Source: Thermodesulfobacteriota bacterium (GTDB lineage Bacteria; Desulfobacterota; Desulfobacteria; Desulfobacterales; UBA11574). Taken from it: 64,000 nucleotides of DNA. Under the pieces are notes generated by a model. That model had not been told where the DNA came from and made no database searches. It saw nothing but the letters and a program-made list of their open reading frames with translations. The stretch lies in the NCBI GenBank assembly GCA_042573625.1, contig JBHPCZ010000001.1, positions 12,859 to 76,858 on the forward strand, written 5' to 3'. The translations under genes were made by a program, and so were the position numbers. This document shows positions 24,552-32,643 of the stretch, piece after piece. The number at the start of each line of letters is the position of its first letter. The stretch's first letter is position 1.

Positions 24552-25353
24552 AAAAAGTTTTTTTATCCGACATCGATACTGGATCATCGCCTTTTCAGCG
24601 TTGCTGTTTCTTCCACCGCTGTCATTTGTTTTCCAGTTTACCGGGGACAGCAACTTCTGCGGCACCTGGTGCCCAAGGATGTTTTTCGTATGGCGTCGGG
24701 GAATGCCAATTGGCGCTTTTTTAGCCTCTTTTTTAAGGAGCTACATGGGCGTTGCCCTTCTGTTCGGGATTCTGATCAGTACCTTTTTTTACAGCAGATA
24801 CTGGTGCAGCCATCTGTGTCCCATCGGGGGAATTATGGAGCTTGGCAGCACGTTGGTTCCGCGGTTTATAAAAATTAATTTTTCAAAAATTCCAGCCCCC
24901 TATTTCCGATACGGCTACCTGTCAGTCTACTTGATTGCCGCAGCAGCCGGCATCGGCAGCTTGTGCTGCGCTTACTGTAATTTTGCTGCCGTACCGCGGA
25001 TGTTCGGCGCCTTGGTTTCACCGGCGGACGTGACCTACTTTTTGAGAAAGGCCGGGCTGATCAACCTGGGCCTGGTCGTTTTCCTGGGCTTTATGTCCAG
25101 AGGAGGCCGAGCATACTGCAACCTGATCTGTCCAGTGGGTGCTCTGGATGCACTGTCAAACCGGCTGGGCAATCGTTGGGGAAAAAGGGTCAGGATTTCC
25201 GCTGAGATCTGTGACAATTGCGGCCAGTGCGTGGACAACTGTCCGGTATGGGCCATTGAAACCGGTGAAAAGACAAAAATCGATCCACATTCCTGCATCC
25301 CCTGCAGAATTTGTGAAATCTCCTGTCATAAAAATGCTATTGTTTATGAATAG
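24526..25353 (+). CDS. membrane-bound 4Fe-4S protein (NapH/MauN-like polyferredoxin)
   Basis: Several TM segments. Cys motifs CSHLCP and CNLICP, plus a C-terminal 2x[4Fe-4S] ferredoxin (CDNCGQCVDNCP, CIPCRICEISCH). Confidence 0.75.
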   Translation: MEKAGTLTEKSFFIRHRYWIIAFSALLFLPPLSFVFQFTGDSNFCGTWCPRMFFVWRRGMPIGAFLASFLRSYMGVALLFGILISTFFYSRYWCSHLCPIGGIMELGSTLVPRFIKINFSKIPAPYFRYGYLSVYLIAAAAGIGSLCCAYCNFAAVPRMFGALVSPADVTYFLRKAGLINLGLVVFLGFMSRGGRAYCNLICPVGALDALSNRLGNRWGKRVRISAEICDNCGQCVDNCPVWAIETGEKTKIDPHSCIPCRICEISCHKNAIVYE

Positions 25354-25497
25354 TTTTTCAGGAAGATGGAGGTTATGTGCACGTGTTGTTCCAATATCAG
25401 TTCAAGGAAAGTTTTGATAACTGCAATTACGACCAAGTATCAAGTATCAGATTTTTTGGTGATACCAGAATATCATATCACCAAGATGACAGGGATC

Positions 25498-25640
25498 TCT
25501 GAAAGTTAAAATATTTGTGATATTGTTTTCCGATAGGGCGAATCCATTTTGCGGGGTTTGCCTTTTTGATTTTTTGTGGATTACTCGATATGTATAATCG
25601 TGATAGCCCGGCTTCAGGTTGTGTTTATTGTAAGATATGC
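25498..25640 (+). repeat. 3' module, copy A (homologous to 31195-31340)
   Basis: Aligns with copy B across the terminator and about 60 nt beyond it. Shared blocks: TTGTGrTATyGTTTT, GGGCrAATCCATTT, GGGGTTTG, ATATGTA, GGCTTCAG and TTGTAAG. Confidence 0.7.
25537..25575 (+). terminator. rho-independent terminator inside 3' module A
   Basis: GGCGAATCC pairs with GGGTTTGCC (2 G-U pairs) around an 8-nt loop. Followed by TTTTTGATTTTTT. Lies between convergent genes. Confidence 0.6.
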
Positions 25641-25722
25641 CAAATTTGATTTCGGATAGAAACCTTCACTTTTCGGCAATTTAAAGTGTCACCATAGTCT
25701 ATGATCACTATACAAGCCAATT

Positions 25723-26628
25723 TTATTTTTTATATTGTCTACCACCGGAACCACCACCGGGACCGCCACCGAAACCACCACCGGGACCACCACCAAGACT
25801 ATCAATGGGGCTAGCATCGAAGTCGCCTGCCCCTCTTTGATCGTCAGTTTTCCAGGGTTGGGTATGTATATCGGAGCTAAGATTTTCTGCTCTTACCCCA
25901 TGACTGATAGCATGAGAATACTGGTTGGCAAGTTTGACTGGATCAGTGCTCCTGGAATGACTCATAAACGAATGGCGCAGCTGTTTCATTTCCTGGGTGC
26001 TGTATTGCTGATTATGTGCATGACACACTACGTCTTTTGCAATTCTAGATGAAACACCGAGACGGGCCATATCTCTGAGCGATAGAAAACTTTCCTGGGC
26101 AAGCGCTTCTGTGTTGGTTTTCGTTCTCTGTTGTGTTCTGTTCTGCAATCTATTCATGACCTGAACAGCATCCTTGTTGTGTATACCGGCTGTAAATCCC
26201 TCTGCAATAGCCTTCGTAATATCGTGTATACGATCTGTATTTTGCGTAATTTGTCTGGCATGATTATTTGCGATTGAGTAGCGATATCGTGTCCTCTCCA
26301 TTGCTCGAAGCACTAAATCTTGAGGAGCATTTTTGGCAAGACCCTCAAAAGCTTTATTCATAACAGGCTTAACCGGCAAACTTTCTTTTACAGTAGCCAT
26401 CAAGATCTGTTGTGCTCGTATGGTGTTTTGGTTCTGGTAATTGTTTTGTATCATCATTTTAGTCACTTTTACGGCTTCATCTCTATGAATACCAGCATTA
26501 ACCATGGCACGAGTATGGGTTCTGATCTGCTCGTTGGCTATTGTAGATAGTTCACGATCAACTTCATCCCCAAAAGCCAAGGATGCAACAAGGGAAATGC
26601 CGAATATGACAATTAAAAATTTTTTCAT
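25723..26628 (-). CDS. secreted helical protein with a Gly-rich C-terminal tail
   Basis: 301-aa ORF with signal peptide MKKFLIVIFGISLVASLAFG and tail GGGPGGGFGGGPGGGSGGRQYKK. Last gene of the ECF sigma operon. No family recognised. Confidence 0.6.
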   Translation of the reverse strand: MKKFLIVIFGISLVASLAFGDEVDRELSTIANEQIRTHTRAMVNAGIHRDEAVKVTKMMIQNNYQNQNTIRAQQILMATVKESLPVKPVMNKAFEGLAKNAPQDLVLRAMERTRYRYSIANNHARQITQNTDRIHDITKAIAEGFTAGIHNKDAVQVMNRLQNRTQQRTKTNTEALAQESFLSLRDMARLGVSSRIAKDVVCHAHNQQYSTQEMKQLRHSFMSHSRSTDPVKLANQYSHAISHGVRAENLSSDIHTQPWKTDDQRGAGDFDASPIDSLGGGPGGGFGGGPGGGSGGRQYKK

Positions 26629-26682
26629 GATTTCGTCCTATATTAAGGCTTTATTCTTTATAACGTATTTAGGGGTAAAAGG

Positions 26683-27009
26683 TTACATGTCCGGGACAAA
26701 AATACAATTTTCGGAACCAAAATCGTCCTTCTCTTTAAACCGACAGGGCGGTACATACACGATACCGTCTATAATATAAAAGTAAGTAAATTCTAATCCT
26801 GCTGGCATCGTCACCAACCAGGTCTTTGAATCAATTTTTTCTACCTGATGAAGTTGATATCCATCCTCTGAGGATGCAAATGAGACAGTATGTGCTTCCG
26901 GTTTTTCTAGATATATGTGTGTCAAATTTCCTTTAACTTGACAAAAATGGCCTGTACACCCCATTAAGCTCATTGCCAGAAATAAAGTTGCTGTAATAGA
27001 ACGTTTCAT
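26683..27009 (-). CDS. lipoprotein with a CBM48/AMPK-beta GBD-like (E-set) domain
   Basis: Lipobox LMGC. The C-terminus KDDFGSENCIFVP parallels PDDFGGENSIFYV of the adjacent anti-sigma factor. Confidence 0.6.
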   Translation of the reverse strand: MKRSITATLFLAMSLMGCTGHFCQVKGNLTHIYLEKPEAHTVSFASSEDGYQLHQVEKIDSKTWLVTMPAGLEFTYFYIIDGIVYVPPCRFKEKDDFGSENCIFVPDM

Positions 27010-27569
27010 ATTTTGTTCTTTACATAAAATATGGAGTTCTCACCACCAAAATCATCTGGCTCCCGGGTTAGTATCGTTGGATCAGCGAATGGTTGCTGGC
27101 CCTCTATCAAATAGGTAAAGCGATGCTCTCCTTCTTTCAATTCATAGGTGACCTCCCAGTACCCGCTGTTGCCGATTTTTTGCATTGGAACTCGTTCCCA
27201 TTCTGTAAAGCTCCCCGTGATCTCTACCTGGCTGACATTCGGTTTGTAAACTACAAATCGTTTCACTACCGGGCTAGGTATTGGCGACGGTACGGTAAGA
27301 AACAGATAAATAACTGTGGCGGCCAATGCCGATGTAACCAGACCCATCGGCTGAAAAAAGGGACTGAAAAATCTTTTCCAGCTAAAAGGTGTCATCACTT
27401 TAGCGGATGGAATATGTTCGACAACATCACTCTGGATGAGTTTTTCCTGATGCAATAATTCTAATACCTCATCGGTAAAAGATTTATCTTTTTGCATGGT
27501 TTCAATAAAATCAATTTTGTCATCAACGTTCATCTCATTATCAATAAACATGCTGATATTATAATTCAT
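27006..27569 (-). CDS. anti-sigma factor, single TM, extracytoplasmic CBM48-like domain
   Basis: 4-nt overlap with the downstream gene and directly abuts the sigma gene. One TM segment (GLVTSALAATVIYLFLTV). The C-terminal ITGSFTEWERVPM...GYWEV...LKEGEHRFTYLIEG...ADP resembles the AMPK-beta glycogen-binding module. Confidence 0.65.
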   Translation of the reverse strand: MNYNISMFIDNEMNVDDKIDFIETMQKDKSFTDEVLELLHQEKLIQSDVVEHIPSAKVMTPFSWKRFFSPFFQPMGLVTSALAATVIYLFLTVPSPIPSPVVKRFVVYKPNVSQVEITGSFTEWERVPMQKIGNSGYWEVTYELKEGEHRFTYLIEGQQPFADPTILTREPDDFGGENSIFYVKNKI

Positions 27570-28046
27570 TTAATCCTCTCCTGCCTGAAGAATCTCTTTT
27601 AGCCTGATACGGGCTCGGTGAACTTTGACTTTTACATTAGCCTCACTTATTCCGATTATGCTTGCAATTTCCCTATATGATAGATCACTGCTAACCGTTA
27701 GAGCAAGGATGTCTCTTTGGTCTTTATTGAGTTTGTGCATGGCGGACAGCACATTACGATACGACTCCCGCACTAAAGTCAGCTGTTCGGGGTCAATCGT
27801 TGTATCTTCGATGTCGTTTTCTATTTCTTTGTTGTACTTTTTTTTGCGAGCATTGTCCCAGACGGCGTTCCTTGCAATGGTGAACAGCAACGAAACATTT
27901 TGTGTCTGTGGACCATATTTTTCCAGATAACGAGTGAAACTCTCCTGCATTATATCGCTGGATAGCTGATAGTTGCTGGTCAAACGCATCAGATAGCCGA
28001 ACAACTTATCTTTTTGAGTCCAGTAAAATGGACTAAATTTATCCAC
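27570..28046 (-). CDS. ECF-type RNA polymerase sigma factor
   Basis: 158 aa. Region 2 (SSDIMQESFTRYL) and region 4 HTH (LSYREIASIIGISEANVKVKVHRARIRLK). Confidence 0.85.
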   Translation of the reverse strand: MDKFSPFYWTQKDKLFGYLMRLTSNYQLSSDIMQESFTRYLEKYGPQTQNVSLLFTIARNAVWDNARKKKYNKEIENDIEDTTIDPEQLTLVRESYRNVLSAMHKLNKDQRDILALTVSSDLSYREIASIIGISEANVKVKVHRARIRLKEILQAGED

Positions 28047-28055
28047 GATACTTTT

Positions 28056-28083
28056 ATAACGTACGAAACATCAAAAGGTTACA
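28056..28083 (-). promoter_or_regulatory. ECF-type promoter (autoregulatory candidate) TGTAACCTTTT-N11-CGTTAT
   Basis: The minus strand reads TGTAACCTTTTGATGTTTCGTACGTTAT and ends 9 nt before the sigma ATG (28046). It has the same motif and spacing as the plus-strand copy at 28228. Confidence 0.55.
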
Positions 28084-28227
28084 GAATTATTTAATTTCCA
28101 GATAATCTACAGTAAAGCTTATACTCTATAGTATATGTTCTTATCAATTCAATTCTACAGCTGCTTCAACGGTTGTGGCTGCTTTCACCTGCCAACCGAC
28201 CATTTATGTAATTTTTTTTTGATATGT

Positions 28228-28255
28228 TGTAACCTTTTCACACCCCATACGTTAT
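28228..28255 (+). promoter_or_regulatory. ECF-type promoter, divergent twin of 28056-28083
   Basis: TGTAACCTTTTCACACCCCATACGTTAT. The -35-like (GTAACC) and -10-like (CGTTAT) boxes are identical and the offset is the same 22 nt. Confidence 0.55.
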
Positions 28256-28659
28256 CAATTGTTAAAGGGTGAGATGGATTGAGAAAGGTCACATCACCTA
28301 CTTGTTGAAACTGATGCTGAATTTGTTTTAACTTGCTAATTCCCTGCAGCTTGCTGCAGGGAGATTCATTGATGAACTAAAAACATCGAAAGAGAAGTGA
28401 ATAGAACTATTTTTTATGTAAGGAGGTATGAATTAAAAAAGTATAATAAACGCTTAAATTATTCAACACTTAGTCTAATTATTAACAAATATAATGATGT
28501 TATATCAAGGAATCTGGATGCGACTTCGTCAGATAGCCGTTCTTTTTATTTGCTCAATTTATTAGCGAAAGGAGGTGAAAATTAAGGCCGAGGGTGTGGA
28601 AAGATGAAAGATGTCAGAAAATCCAAAATGATTACAACGAATTATATGGAGGTAAAATT

Positions 28660-29073
28660 ATGACGTTTCAATATTCCCAAAAGGTCATTTTTAGTGCTGT
28701 TTGTCTTTTCATGTTGTCTCTAACTGCTTTTTCTTTGGCGCCAAAAGATTGCCACGCTTTTGAGATTACGATTGATGTGGCTCCAAACGTTCTTTCTCTT
28801 CAGAATAATGGCCAGGTGGTGACTGTACATACAGATATTCCTTATGATGATGTTGAGCTTACTAGTGTGCATATAAATGGTGTGCTTATTGATAGCTGGG
28901 AGTCGGATGTTCGTGGCTACTTTGTGGCCAGGTTTGTAATGAACGCGATTAAAAACTTGCCTTTAGTTATCGGCGATTACAATACATTCACGTTAGTTGG
29001 AAAAACTTTTTCGGACGGAGAATTTTCGGGGTCTCAAGATATTCTTGTTGTGGAGAATGATCCGAAGAATTAG
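28660..29073 (+). CDS. secreted hypothetical protein (beta-rich)
   Basis: ATG at 28660 lies 6 nt after GGAGGT. Hydrophobic signal segment VIFSAVCLFMLSLTAFSLA. The ORF-track GTG start at 28594 adds a non-signal extension. Confidence 0.6.
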   Translation: MTFQYSQKVIFSAVCLFMLSLTAFSLAPKDCHAFEITIDVAPNVLSLQNNGQVVTVHTDIPYDDVELTSVHINGVLIDSWESDVRGYFVARFVMNAIKNLPLVIGDYNTFTLVGKTFSDGEFSGSQDILVVENDPKN

Positions 29074-29517
29074 TAACGGTGCCGGTCAAGGATGAAGTGT
29101 GTTCCGAAATAACCTGCTGGGATTAATTGAAATACATCGAAAATTAGATATAACAAAACATTCGAGAGGGACCGGGAACTTACCCAAAGAAAGCGGACAC
29201 CAAAAGCTAACTAACGGAGGGTGTCCAAATGGCAAGAATCAAAGGGCTTCAAAGCCCGTATAAACCGCGTTTATACCAGGAACCCAAAGGTTCATCGATT
29301 TTTCAAACGAACTGGAAATTTACGGATAGATCAACCCGCACCCCATGCGATCAACCAGGTTAATGGGATGCTACTTGAAGGGAAGATCACCGGGAAATGC
29401 CGCGGCTTTTTATCGGCGCCTTTTATCCATTTTTTTGGCTTTAGAATCGACCTTCGGTGATCGTTTCCCGGCCCCTCATTTCCACCGTTCAAAAAACAGC
29501 AATTCAATCAGGAAAGG

Positions 29518-29664
29518 ATGAAAAAACTTTTTTTGATCTTGGTAATCTTTGTATCGTTTACAGCGTTTGCTTTTGCCGGTGGTGACCAAAATCATGGCAG
29601 CAAGGGACAAGGCAGTACAGGTAGTGACGGACAAGGCCAAACAACCCAACAGCGAGGCGATTAA
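29518..29664 (+). CDS. small secreted Gly/Gln-rich peptide (48 aa), below the ORF-track length cutoff
   Basis: Hand translation: MKKLFLILVIFVSFTAFAFAGGDQNHGSKGQGSTGSDGQGQTTQQRGD. SD AGGAAAGG directly upstream. Classic signal peptide. Confidence 0.5.
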   Translation: MKKLFLILVIFVSFTAFAFAGGDQNHGSKGQGSTGSDGQGQTTQQRGD

Positions 29665-29791
29665 ATAATTCACTCAACAAAAAGGGGGATAAATGGAACT
29701 TGTGACGACGCCACTTCTTGAAAAATGGAAGGTGGAAAGTGCTGAGTTTCTGTGTGTACTGCCGTAAAAACAGGATTAGGGTTTCTTTTTT

Positions 29792-30010
29792 ATGATTAAT
29801 ATTGTCAGAAATAGAAGAGGTAGACGACCCAGAACAGCCAGACGGGCATCCTTAAGAGACAGGCGGGCATTCTTAAGAGACAGACGGGCATCCTTAATAG
29901 ATAGAAGGGCATTCTTATCTGTAGTCCGTATTCCTAATAGAAGAAGTGGAAGAGACAGAAGGAGTTGGTCTGACCGCAGAGGTGGCGTTGAACGCAGAAG
30001 TATTCACTAA
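29792..30010 (+). CDS. Arg-rich DRR-repeat small protein (coding status uncertain)
   Basis: 72-aa ORF containing RRASLRD RRAFLRD RRASLID RRAFLSV, then RRSGRD RRSWSD RRGGVE RRS. The RR periodicity continues past the DNA repeat. SD is weak. Confidence 0.4.
   Translation: MINIVRNRRGRRPRTARRASLRDRRAFLRDRRASLIDRRAFLSVVRIPNRRSGRDRRSWSDRRGGVERRSIH
29839..29943. repeat. tandem 21-bp repeats (4 good copies plus 1 degenerate)
   Basis: CAGACGGGCATCCTTAAGAGA / CAGGCGGGCATTCTTAAGAGA / CAGACGGGCATCCTTAATAGA / TAGAAGGGCATTCTTATCTGT / AGTCCGTATTCCTAATAGA. Confidence 0.85.
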
Positions 30011-30069
30011 TTGAAGTGAAACTAAATATCACTCCCAAGTGTCTTAGATAAAGGGTTTTGGAATTTACC

Positions 30070-30444
30070 ATGGATAGTAAGGAATTTAAAAGCTTCCGCC
30101 TAAAAATGAACAAGACGCAACACCAGGTGAGCCGTCTACTCGGAACGTCTATAAAGACTATACAAAGTTATGAACAGGGTTGTCGAAACATACCAAATCA
30201 CGCAGAGCGGCAGATGCTTTATCTAATTTCCAGGATGAAAGAAAGCCACAATACTCAAAAACCATGCTGGGTTATCAAACAATGTCCTCGATGGGTAAAA
30301 AATAAATGCCCGGCCTGGGAATTTGATTCGGGGGATTTATGCTGGTTTATTAATGGTACATATTGTGGTGGTAATGTTGTTGAGAGCTGGGAACAAAAAA
30401 TGAAACTTTGCCGGTCCTGTGAAGCTTTCTCATTCTTGAGCTAA
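30070..30444 (+). CDS. XRE-family HTH regulator with a C-terminal Cys/Trp-rich (two-CW-like) domain
   Basis: HTH is FRLKMNKTQHQVSRLLGTSIKTIQSYEQG. C-terminus is PCWVIKQCPRWVKNKCPAWEF..DLCWFINGTYCGG...CRSCEAF. ATG at 30070 preferred over the TTG at 30058. Confidence 0.75.
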   Translation: MDSKEFKSFRLKMNKTQHQVSRLLGTSIKTIQSYEQGCRNIPNHAERQMLYLISRMKESHNTQKPCWVIKQCPRWVKNKCPAWEFDSGDLCWFINGTYCGGNVVESWEQKMKLCRSCEAFSFLS

Positions 30445-30523
30445 CTCAAAAACACTTCTAATCATACAACGATACTTTCGATAATGGTTTGAAATCCTCT
30501 GTCCGAAACCTGTGTGTTCTGCA

Positions 30524-30669
30524 ATAAAACACACCAAATATTGTATTCGTCTTTCTTCATAGCCTAAAAACCTTGTACCACAACTCCTATAAAAACATCC
30601 CACAATGTGTGATAACCTATTTGAATTACTACATAAATTGTCATAATTTTCTTGACAACGTCACAATCC
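30524..30669 (+). repeat. 5' promoter-region module, copy B (homologous to 21511-21652)
   Basis: See copy A. Carries the exact 17-mer at 30593-30609. Confidence 0.7.
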
Positions 30670-30680
30670 TTGTTCATAAT
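30652..30680 (+). promoter_or_regulatory. sigma-70-type promoter
   Basis: TTGACA (30652-30657), a 17-nt spacer, then CATAAT (30675-30680). Lies about 120 nt upstream of the 30802 gene. Confidence 0.55.
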
Positions 30681-30721
30681 TTACTGTGGCCAATCTTTCT
30701 AATTCAAAAAAGGGATATAAC

Positions 30722-30808
30722 ATGAATTGTATCCCCTTTGATATCCCCTGCTTGCCATGGGGAGCGTCATTTAATTTAATCAGTAACAGAAAGGGGGCAG
30801 AATGTTAA
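30722..30808 (+). CDS. candidate upstream ORF / leader peptide (28 aa) overlapping the start of the next gene
   Basis: Hand translation: MNCIPFDIPCLPWGASFNLISNRKGAEC. AAGGGA lies 6 nt upstream. The stop TAA (30806-30808) overlaps the ATG at 30802. The region also folds into two hairpins. Confidence 0.3.
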   Translation: MNCIPFDIPCLPWGASFNLISNRKGAEC

Positions 30809-31152
30809 AAAAAATGTTCAAGATTATTTTTTTCGTTTTTCTGGTGGGGCTTTTGATTTCGCCGGCGTGGAGCTCAGACAACATCGTCATCGACACGGAT
30901 CGTAATTTAATTCTCGCTGGAAGCGGAGGAGGAGACCAAGACAGAGACCAAGACAGAAAGCGTGACGAATCTTGTAACGACCTCGCCCCTTACAACCCTG
31001 TTCATCCTTTAATTCTCGCTAGAGGAGGAAACGGTGGCAACGGCGGCGGCGGTGGCCACGGCGGCGGTGGCGGCGGCGATCAAAGCAGGGACAGGGACTG
31101 TGACGATGGTGACGGCCCTCAACCTGAAGGCCCTAACGGCCCCGGCACCTGA
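30802..31152 (+). CDS. secreted Gly/Asp/His-rich repeat protein
   Basis: Signal peptide ending PAWS. Internal duplication: LILAGSGGGDQDRDQDRKRDESCND versus LILARGGNGGNGGGGGHGGGGGGDQSRDRDCDDGD. SD GGGGG upstream. Confidence 0.65.
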   Translation: MLKKMFKIIFFVFLVGLLISPAWSSDNIVIDTDRNLILAGSGGGDQDRDQDRKRDESCNDLAPYNPVHPLILARGGNGGNGGGGGHGGGGGGDQSRDRDCDDGDGPQPEGPNGPGT

Positions 31153-31194
31153 GATTGTAACCCGTGACGGAACTTGCGACGACGCCACTTCTTA

Positions 31195-31340
31195 AAAACC
31201 TGAAAATGTTGTGGTATCGTTTTTCAATAAGGGCAAATCCATTTGATGGGGTTTGTCCTTTTATTTTTATGATATATGTAATCAGTAAGAGCAGGCTTCA
31301 GCCTGTGATATTTGTAAGTATCTGCAATAACCTGCAAATA
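31195..31340 (+). repeat. 3' module, copy B (homologous to 25498-25640)
   Basis: See copy A. Confidence 0.7.
31230..31267 (+). terminator. rho-independent terminator inside 3' module B
   Basis: GGGCAAATCC pairs with GGGTTTGTCC (2 G-U pairs) around an 8-nt loop. Followed by TTTTATTTTT. Confidence 0.6.
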
Positions 31341-31536
31341 TCAAAAAGCTGAGTTTTTCCAGATATCCATTCCATATTACAAAATGTAAATGTCAGATAT
31401 GGTTGTGTCTGCAATTGGATAAATGCACAATTAAATCTTGGTCAATGCAATTAAATCCACCTGAAAACATCTAATCCGGGTTTTAAATCCTAACTGAGCA
31501 AAAGCGAGTGCCCCTTTATTTTTAGAACCATTCGAA

Positions 31537-32643
31537 TTAAATTTTCACCAGCTCATAATTTCGACTTCCAAGCCCCAGCTGCTCGGCATATTCCAACTGA
31601 TACGCCCAGTCCACCTTGGGATAAACCCCCCGAAACTTGTCTTCACCCGGTTTCATGTGGGTCTGGAGACAGGACCCGGGAAGCGCGTGCTCCTGGTTGA
31701 CAAGATCAACGGACGCCTGGTCGATAGCTACCGGATCTTTTGATGCAACAACGCCGATATCCCTGACGATGGGGGCATCGTTCATGGGATAACAGTCGCA
31801 TGCCGGAGAGACATCGGTGATGAAATTAATCGACAACGTCTTTTGGGATTTTCCCTTTAATACGCCCATGGTGTATTCAATCATGTTTTCCAAAAAAACA
31901 GGGATCGCCTGGTTCCATTCTATTTCTATGGCGGCGCTGGGGCAGACAAGGATACATTCGCCGCAACCGATACACTTTTTGGCATCCAGCACTGCTTTCT
32001 CCTCGACCAGGGAAAGGGCGTTCTGGGAACAGTGACCGACACAGTCTCCGCAGCCGATACACTTTTTCGTAATGACCTTTGGCGCCACGGTTGAATGCTG
32101 CGCCAGTTTGCCCCGCCGGGATGCGCACCCCATGCCCAGATTTTTTATCGCCCCGCCAAATCCGGAAAGCTCATGCCCTTTGAAATGCGCCACCGATATC
32201 AGCGCGTCGGCCTCGACGATATCCGTTCCAATGTAAACTCTCTTAAAATTCTTCTGATTGACAATGATGGATGTTTCGCTCCTGCCCCTTAGCCCATCGG
32301 CAATGATAATGGGCGCATCCACCACAGCGTAGGCAAAACCGTTTTGAATCGCTGTTGTCAGGTGATGGGGAGAGTCGCTCCGTGTCCCTGAATAGAGTGT
32401 GTTGGCATCTGTAAGAAATGGGACGCCATTAACACCTTTGATCGTTTCGACAATTTTCCGTAAAAATACAGGCCGTATAAATGCGGTGTTTCCCATTTCT
32501 CCAAAATGAAGCTTCACCGCAACAAGATCTCTTTCTTTGACAGCTTCGGAAAGACCCGCGGTTTCAATGAGCCTTCCCAGTTTTGCGACAAGGCTTTCTT
32601 TCATCGTTGCCCTAAGATCGATAAAATAGACTTTGCTTTTCAT
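31537..32643 (-). CDS. DUF362 family protein with an inserted 2x[4Fe-4S] ferredoxin domain
   Basis: N-terminus (VYFIDLR...VAVKLHFGE.GN..FIRP.F) is typical of DUF362. Also CIGCGDCVGHC and CIGCGECILVCP. Confidence 0.8.
   Translation of the reverse strand: MKSKVYFIDLRATMKESLVAKLGRLIETAGLSEAVKERDLVAVKLHFGEMGNTAFIRPVFLRKIVETIKGVNGVPFLTDANTLYSGTRSDSPHHLTTAIQNGFAYAVVDAPIIIADGLRGRSETSIIVNQKNFKRVYIGTDIVEADALISVAHFKGHELSGFGGAIKNLGMGCASRRGKLAQHSTVAPKVITKKCIGCGDCVGHCSQNALSLVEEKAVLDAKKCIGCGECILVCPSAAIEIEWNQAIPVFLENMIEYTMGVLKGKSQKTLSINFITDVSPACDCYPMNDAPIVRDIGVVASKDPVAIDQASVDLVNQEHALPGSCLQTHMKPGEDKFRGVYPKVDWAYQLEYAEQLGLGSRNYELVKI

Follow-up and report, generated by a model that had tools for sequence, protein, structure and literature searches.

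A putative self-activating ECF sigma factor circuit with three promoters and a predicted near-leaderless sigma cistron in a Thermodesulfobacteriota bacterium

ECF sigma factors usually autoregulate, and the promoters that they read share a generic layout of AAC-N16-CGT with a T-tract after the -35 box (PMC3817407; PMC7826278). A first-pass annotation of the 64-kb stretch of DNA analysed here, which we call the window, had noted two divergent copies of a promoter of this type beside an ECF sigma factor gene, one of them ending almost at the sigma start codon. This arrangement raises the question of whether the sigma factor reads these boxes and thereby activates its own expression, and of how its mRNA would begin if it does. 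We approached both parts of the question through the distribution of the motif in the window and through a comparison with orthologous loci.

Results

Three exact copies of one bipartite motif

With up to three mismatches allowed, a search of the 64-kb window returned three exact copies of the 28-base motif TGTAACCTTTT-N11-CGTTAT, compared with 0.23 matches expected at that tolerance, and none of 100 shuffles gave three. All 17 specified bases are identical across the copies, which are positioned as follows:

28083..28056, minus strand: putative autoregulatory ECF promoter of the sigma operon; exact motif, matrix score 37 bits
28083..28077 and 28061..28056, minus strand: the -35 box (TGTAACC) and -10 box (CGTTAT) of this sigma-operon promoter
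28228..28255, plus strand: putative divergent ECF promoter; exact motif, matrix score 33 bits
26687..26660, minus strand: putative internal ECF promoter before the 301-aa gene; exact motif, matrix score 39.9 bits, the highest

The box starts are 22 nt apart, so that TGTAACC-N15-CGTTAT is equivalent to AAC-N16-CGT, and the copy at the sigma gene accordingly has the AAC -35 element, the spacer of 16-17 nt and the CGT -10 element of an ECF promoter, and stands before the sigma operon, facing the same way. Both divergent copies, with the shared box offset and generic ECF layout first ascribed to them, are thus exact; their description as twins falls short, because the third copy, inside the operon on the minus strand, had been overlooked. 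The 11-nt spacers (GATGTTTCGTA in 28083..28056, CACACCCCATA in 28228..28255 and ACCCCTAAATA in 26687..26660) and the flanks are unrelated among the three copies. Identical boxes around unrelated spacers point to constraint on the boxes rather than to a recent duplication.

A scoring matrix built from 29 orthologous sites (described below) gave 33-40 bits to these three copies only, the next best site in the 64 kb reaching 17.7 bits, and no further sites emerged in the window when spacers of 10-14 nt were allowed. A weaker third site had been suggested at 31156. The letters exist as described (TGTAACC at 31156-31162, plus strand, with CGAC at offset 21), but we rejected 31156..31180 as an ECF promoter: its family-matrix score stays under 8 bits whatever spacer length was tried, no ortholog site uses a CGAC-type -10, and the TGTAACC heptamer alone is not enriched in the window, with nine occurrences vs about five expected.

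The sigma operon and its internal target

Both minus-strand copies belong to a compact gene cluster, which comprises:

27570..28046, minus strand: ECF sigma factor gene, 158 aa, GTG start (Pfam and NCBIfam)
27006..27569, minus strand: putative single-pass anti-sigma factor with a C-terminal CBM48/AMPK1_CBM domain (Pfam AMPK1_CBM, 2.3e-10)
26683..27009, minus strand: 108-aa lipoprotein (p108), a paralog of the anti-sigma periplasmic domain (tblastn)
25723..26628, minus strand: 301-aa secreted all-alpha helical-repeat protein (p301) with a disordered Gly-rich tail

The sigma protein has the composition of an ECF (group 4) sigma-70 factor, with sigma-2 and sigma-4 domains only in its 158 residues. 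In Pfam, Sigma70_r4_2 scores 51.6 bits (cutoff 25.7) and Sigma70_r2 22.4 bits, just below its 24-bit cutoff, and NCBIfam TIGR02937 (sigma70-ECF) reaches 75 bits against a cutoff of 42.9. SigM is the nearest NCBIfam subfamily, under its cutoff; SigW, SigL, CnrH and SigE are the relatives in the PDB, the alignment with the SigW structure 5wuq starting at query residue 2. The start codon is the GTG at 28046..28044 (minus strand), and an in-frame TGA at 28073..28071, inside the promoter spacer, leaves no start further upstream. Among orthologs, the first 19 residues are conserved from codon 1, many proteins begin V/GTG, and ATG or GTG stands at the aligned first position in nearly every one. The distance of 9 nt that had been given between the minus-strand promoter copy and the sigma start is exact, while the codon itself is GTG rather than the ATG assumed. 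Literature searches for this ECF group or for a named CBM48-type anti-sigma factor found nothing specific, and a CBM48-linked ECF group is absent from the ECF classification paper PMC7826278.

The putative anti-sigma gene adjoins the sigma gene in all orthologs. In the window its ATG abuts the sigma stop codon, with the Shine-Dalgarno (SD) sequence GGAGAGGA inside the sigma 3′ end, and in nearly all orthologs the last sigma codons likewise contain GGAG or GGAGG next to an adjacent or overlapping stop and start. No Pfam anti-sigma family matched the N-terminus of the protein at E ≤ 10. The p108 lipoprotein is also conserved in orthologs and cross-matches the C-terminal region of the anti-sigma factor by tblastn; its last codon and stop (ATG TAA CC; 26683-26687) fall inside the -35 box of the internal promoter, an overlap of coding end and -35 box that is conserved in at least nine orthologous loci.

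This internal promoter ends 31 nt from the ATG of p301, with an SD-like TAGGAC, and in more than 25 loci the orthologous p301 promoters have a -10-to-ATG distance of 27-38 nt and a GGAGG SD. The 201 homologs of p301 are all unnamed and lack Pfam domains, and p301 itself matched no Pfam or NCBIfam family. Its AlphaFold2 model (pLDDT 84) shows 12 helices in a repeat arrangement followed by the disordered Gly-rich tail. With this model, a Foldseek search against the PDB returned only designed helical repeats at E > 0.01 and no natural analog. Lacking both a natural PDB analog and a Pfam family, this target represents an unnamed family restricted to these bacteria.

The motif accompanies the sigma gene across orthologous loci

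We compared the window with 20 genome loci and about 40 metagenome loci at 41-82% sigma identity, together with three closer contigs at 83-87%, finding sites by a GTAAC-N16-CGT[TA] search and then with the matrix from 29 sites. A bipartite motif with the consensus TGTAACCTTT-N12-CGTTAT is shared by about 45 orthologous loci from Desulfobacterales-type MAGs and from metagenomes, at a sigma identity of 41-87%, and across the 72 unique sites the boxes are conserved and the spacers are not. The motif lies directly upstream of the sigma gene in about 40 loci and between p108 and p301 in more than 25, and sigma, the CBM48 anti-sigma factor, p108 and p301 occur together as a module in nearly all loci compared, at least 18 genome loci among them; in almost every one of those genome loci the motif precedes both sigma and p301. 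Where the p108-p301 pair has been relocated upstream of sigma (L015 and L016; L numbers denote individual loci), the motif is still found between the two genes, and it also occurs upstream of variable small secreted proteins. Conservation upstream of orthologous sigma genes, together with overrepresentation in the regulon, constitutes a phylogenetic footprint, and the same conserved-motif logic has been used for defining ECF promoters (PMC3817407, PMC7826278, PMC7776599). It is very likely that all three boxes in the window are ECF promoters of the sigma factor encoded at 27570..28046.

A divergent unit with variable gene content

On the plus strand, the divergent copy faces a series of small genes:

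28256..28659, plus strand: AT-rich region of about 400 nt, from the divergent promoter to the gene at 28660
28660..29073, plus strand: 137-aa secreted protein (p137), SD GGAGG, first gene past the divergent promoter
29518..29664, plus strand: 48-aa secreted Gly/Gln-rich peptide gene, 82% DNA identity to an ORF of L002
30802..31152, plus strand: 116-aa Gly-rich secreted protein, signal-peptide end PAWS

The closest relatives have a divergent promoter too, and it is homologous to the segment 28210-28272. Across relatives this promoter stands 89-96 nt before a Gly-rich gene or a p137 homolog, and the gene that it serves varies. Homologs of the Gly-rich gene are found 89 nt past it in L002, L082, L083, L085, L087, L088, L092 and L093; in L003, L101 and L103 they are preceded by an ECF promoter of their own. 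A p137 homolog lies 96 nt downstream of it in L162, follows the Gly-rich gene as second in the divergent unit of L087, and sits near the module in L005; in L161 the gene divergent from sigma encodes an Arg-rich protein that, judged by its sequence, is apparently PilZ-like. The L162 arrangement supports the earlier proposal that the plus-strand copy drives the gene at 28660.

The AT-rich leader of about 400 nt that had been described between the two is present, but it looks like a lineage-specific rearrangement given the 89-96 nt of relatives. Within it, 28420-28501 matches a spacer of L086 and L087 that lies between the Gly-rich gene and p137 and precedes p137 or 48-aa peptide genes, and on account of this match the leader is best read as a rearrangement product. 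No Rfam family matched 25000-32000 at E ≤ 1, the fold z-score of the leader (-1.0) indicates no significant structure, and no plus-strand terminator-like site was found between the divergent promoter and the 28660 gene. The leader also contains a perfect GC-rich palindrome, TCCCTGCAG-CTTG-CTGCAGGGA, at 28341-28362 (plus strand), 85 nt past the divergent promoter; having no T-run, it could form a hairpin or bind a protein.

Because the first strong plus-strand terminator comes only at 31229-31260, the transcription unit may span the 48-aa gene, an Arg-rich ORF, an HTH/two-CW gene and the Gly-rich gene. The 48-aa peptide gene, whose counterpart in L002 lies downstream of the divergent promoter there, is probably in the same unit as p137. 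The Gly-rich genes and p137 carry SDs. The Gly-rich gene of the window is situated 2.5 kb from the ECF promoter, behind a near-consensus sigma-70-like element (TTGACA-17-CATAAT, 30652-30680), and the matrix scan found no ECF promoter of its own for this gene (30802).

Several further features of the plus strand deserve mention in their own right. The Arg-rich ORF (72 aa; 29792-30010) contains a tandem repeat at 29833-29916, with three 21-nt units encoding RRASLRD/RRAFLRD, and the divergent gene of L161 has a similar (D/E)RR-rich N-terminus ahead of its apparent PilZ-type domain. The gene at 30058-30444 (plus strand) fuses HTH_3 to a two-CW domain (NF045718; score 46 bits, cutoff 35 bits); it does not belong to the conserved module and is placed between the ECF-driven genes and the Gly-rich gene. 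A 30-nt repeat, GGAACTTG[T/C]GACGACGCCACTTCTT[G/A]AAAA, is present at 29695-29724 and 31169-31198 (plus strand; 93% identical, 0 expected), each copy just 3′ of a small Gly-rich secreted-protein gene. The repeat may mark the start of small ORFs (MELVTTPLLEKW... and VTELATTPLLKNL...) or act as a GGAAC-type promoter. No copy of it, nor of the 25-nt repeat beside 31156, turned up in the 160 fetched loci. A 51-nt repeat at 25526-25576 and 31221-31271 (plus strand; 75% identical) encloses the entire sigma module with its divergent unit, and both copies contain a terminator-like hairpin with a T-run behind it.

A recurrent promoter-to-start distance predicts a near-leaderless sigma mRNA

The interval between the sigma promoter and the sigma gene is a single short element:

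28055..28047, minus strand: AAAAGTATC, the 9 nt from the -10 box to the GTG; predicted transcription start site (TSS) and 5′ UTR

Exactly 9 nt separate the end of CGTTAT from the start codon in 16 non-redundant orthologs, the window included, and also in L161 and L162; about 21 non-redundant lineages fall within 7-10 nt altogether. The distance is 12-15 nt in L012, L105, L111 and L102, and 16 nt, through a 7-nt insertion, in L163 and in the L001/L002 clade, the nearest sampled, with about ten metagenome contigs. Insertions extend it to 77 nt in L083 and L086, to about 276 nt in L084, L085 and L088, and to 79 nt in L003. Spacings of 12-16 nt thus occur in six lineages and insertion-interrupted ones in three, and with 16 nt, 12-15 nt or insertions of 60-270 nt in some relatives the tight spacing is evidently dispensable. 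The insertions between the sigma promoter and the GTG in the metagenome relatives L083 and L086 (about 61 nt) and L084, L085 and L088 (about 260 nt) end in ...CTCAACTAGGGTATAAC, with CCCTA/TAGGG termini, and resemble a MITE or an IS remnant.

Of the 16 sequences in the 9-nt class, 14 have T at position 6 and 15 a purine at position 7. A pyrimidine-purine step falls at nt 6-7 in 15 of 16, compared with at most 6 of 16 at every other position, and the non-sigma promoters of the family have a broader pyrimidine-purine peak at nt 5-9, mostly T-TAAA. ECF transcription starts at -1/+1 counted from the flipped -10 base, the initiating purine being picked by a pyrimidine-purine pair (Todor et al., PMC7776599). 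When the fourth base of CGTTAT is taken as this -10 base, the candidate start positions are nt 7 and 8. The predicted sigma TSS is the A at 28049, which would leave a 5′ UTR of 3 nt, AUC, with a plausible range of 0-3 nt.

No SD precedes any candidate sigma start, and the 9-nt gap has no room for one. The start codons of the 9-nt class are GTG in ten cases, ATG in six and TTG in none, and the sigma cistron thereby combines the absence of an SD with an AUG or GUG start, as is expected of a leaderless mRNA. GUG is a poor leaderless start in E. coli. The sigma cistron would be the only leaderless one in the regulon, since the anti-sigma and target genes carry GGAG or GGAGG. In mycobacteria, leaderless initiation works only with ATG or GTG, and the codon must sit at +1 (PMC4633059); given this need for RTG exactly at +1, a 3-nt leader may behave differently. 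The first-pass annotation had estimated a sigma 5′ UTR of about 1-4 nt with no SD, and the range of 0-3 nt predicted from the recurrent 9-nt spacing and the pyrimidine-purine step agrees with that estimate. We consider it probable, judging from these sequence comparisons, that the sigma-dependent transcript carries a leader of at most 3 nt.

Further upstream, the four closest sequences (the window, L161, L162 and L163) contain a two-block element, TTGATA-18-TATAAG at 28147..28118 (minus strand) in the window, in which the boxes are conserved and the spacer is variable. It lies about 35-65 nt upstream of the ECF -35 box and 40-100 nt before the sigma start. The element could be a second, housekeeping promoter that gives a sigma transcript with a leader of about 65 nt; its blocks may serve basal sigma expression either as such a promoter or as the site of a regulator.

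Alternative readings of the boxes and of the sigma start

The most serious alternative leaves the ECF boxes as real and disputes only the leaderless mRNA, which would be bypassed by a housekeeping transcript from upstream or by a start further downstream, for example at Met20. In its favour are the conserved two-block element just described, the gene-caller versions of 139 and 144 aa in many homologs, and the -10-to-start distances of 12-16 nt or longer in several lineages. The proposed housekeeping promoter, however, has a TATAAG without the usual final T and was not called by a promoter scan. Initiation at Met20 would cost the sigma-2 domain its first helix, and the alignment with SigW begins at residue 2. 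Conservation at the protein level extends over residues 1-19, nearly every ortholog has ATG or GTG as its aligned first codon, and an SD stands ahead of no candidate start. An exact 9-nt spacing held over 42-87% identity would moreover be hard to explain if the distance between promoter and start were irrelevant. On this balance we regard a sigma mRNA that is not functionally leaderless as unlikely, and keep the near-leaderless transcript as the preferred reading.

The boxes themselves could in principle be something other than sigma-dependent promoters, as any bipartite, conserved motif with fixed spacing might be a protein binding site, in this case an operator for the HTH/two-CW protein encoded at 30058..30444 or for another repressor. 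Against this, the motif keeps the same orientation relative to the downstream gene at every site, lies at promoter distance, 27-40 nt before SD-led genes, and shows the AAC and CGT hallmarks with a 16-nt spacer; it also co-occurs with the sigma ortholog in every lineage, while the HTH gene is no part of the conserved module. This makes the operator reading highly improbable. Less credible still is an origin as remnants of a recent duplication or a small mobile repeat with no regulatory role. Three perfect 17-base matches within 1.6 kb might suggest it, as might the mobile-looking insertions near the sigma promoter in some relatives, but neither spacers nor flanks are related among the three copies and the boxes recur at orthologous positions even where protein identity between genomes is only 41-60%, and we rejected this origin on those grounds. 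The boxes are better read as ECF promoters.

Discussion

Collectively, the arrangement appears to be the standard signature of an autoregulated ECF sigma factor with a small regulon, and we assign a probability of roughly 80% to the reading of the locus as a self-activating ECF circuit with three promoters, a membrane anti-sigma factor and a near-leaderless sigma. In this circuit, RNA polymerase carrying the ECF sigma factor (27570..28046) would read all three bipartite boxes. Transcription from 28083..28056 would drive the operon of sigma, anti-sigma and lipoprotein genes and so provide positive feedback; the copy at 26687..26660, inside the operon at the lipoprotein stop codon, would boost the 301-aa secreted protein, the most conserved target; and the copy at 28228..28255 would drive a variable set of genes for small secreted proteins, in the window p137 and probably those that follow. 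With its periplasmic CBM48-like domain, the membrane anti-sigma factor presumably holds the sigma factor inactive until an envelope signal arrives.

A more speculative layer concerns translation. The sigma transcript would start near 28049 with a 5′ UTR of 0-3 nt, no SD and a GUG codon, whereas the anti-sigma gene has an SD and a coupled start. An excess of anti-sigma over sigma is a plausible consequence of this difference, and such an excess would silence the feedback loop until a trigger comes. Selection might thus keep the sigma start, often a GUG without an SD, 3 nt (0-3 nt) from its own sigma-dependent 5′ end while the anti-sigma gene keeps a strong SD and a coupled start. This would hard-wire an asymmetry in translation and, with it, the proportion of sigma to anti-sigma in a positive-feedback switch. 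We offer this rationale tentatively, as an idea that may well prove wrong. If it holds, the locus would be a case of near-leaderless or leaderless initiation in Thermodesulfobacteriota with a GUG start and a 3-nt leader.

The analysis defines the promoter motif TGTAACCTTT-N12-CGTTAT and a core regulon for an unstudied ECF family of Desulfobacterales-type sediment bacteria, the regulon consisting of sigma, the CBM48 anti-sigma factor, the paralogous lipoprotein, the secreted helical-repeat protein and small Gly-rich secreted proteins. It also supplies a directly testable orthogonal sigma/promoter pair, and a natural example for asking whether a sigma cistron placed at the 5′ end of its mRNA tunes sigma to anti-sigma stoichiometry. 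Since autoregulated ECF promoters and leaderless ECF transcripts have both been described already, no new regulatory principle is involved; the predicted near-leaderless sigma cistron, recurrent among orthologs, is the sole mildly unusual aspect of an otherwise ordinary stress-response circuit.

Comparison with known systems

Autoregulated promoters of the B. subtilis sigma-W, sigma-X and sigma-M type read TGAAAC-N16-CGTA or TGTAAC-N17-CGAC. The promoters described here resemble them in the xGxAAC -35 element followed by a T-tract, the 16-nt spacer and the CGT of the -10 element, in the position of the promoter directly upstream of a sigma/anti-sigma operon, and in a small regulon of envelope or secreted proteins. 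They differ in belonging to a distinct, Desulfobacterales-type lineage, in the CBM48-like periplasmic domain of the anti-sigma factor, in the -10 sequence CGTTAT, and in a sigma cistron predicted to lack both leader and SD; sigW and sigX have ordinary SD-led leaders.

The rpoE-rseABC locus of E. coli, the sigma-E paradigm, offers a second parallel to the circuit proposed here: one transcript from a self-recognised promoter carries the ECF sigma gene together with genes for a membrane anti-sigma factor and a periplasmic accessory protein (cited in PMC3817407). Unlike the present locus, rpoE is leadered, its motif is GGAACTT/TCAAA, and the accessory proteins of the two systems are unrelated.

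The closest precedents for the start of the sigma mRNA come from Actinobacteria, in which leaderless ECF-dependent promoters have been predicted (Todor et al. 2020, PMC7776599), and from mycobacterial leaderless translation (Shell et al. 2015, PMC4633059). The common feature, by prediction in the present locus, is an ECF promoter so placed that the mRNA starts on or beside an ATG or GTG codon that has no SD. The present case differs in its occurrence in Thermodesulfobacteriota, in a predicted 5′ end about 3 nt upstream of the codon rather than on it, and in that the sigma cistron alone, among the genes of its regulon, would be arranged in this way.
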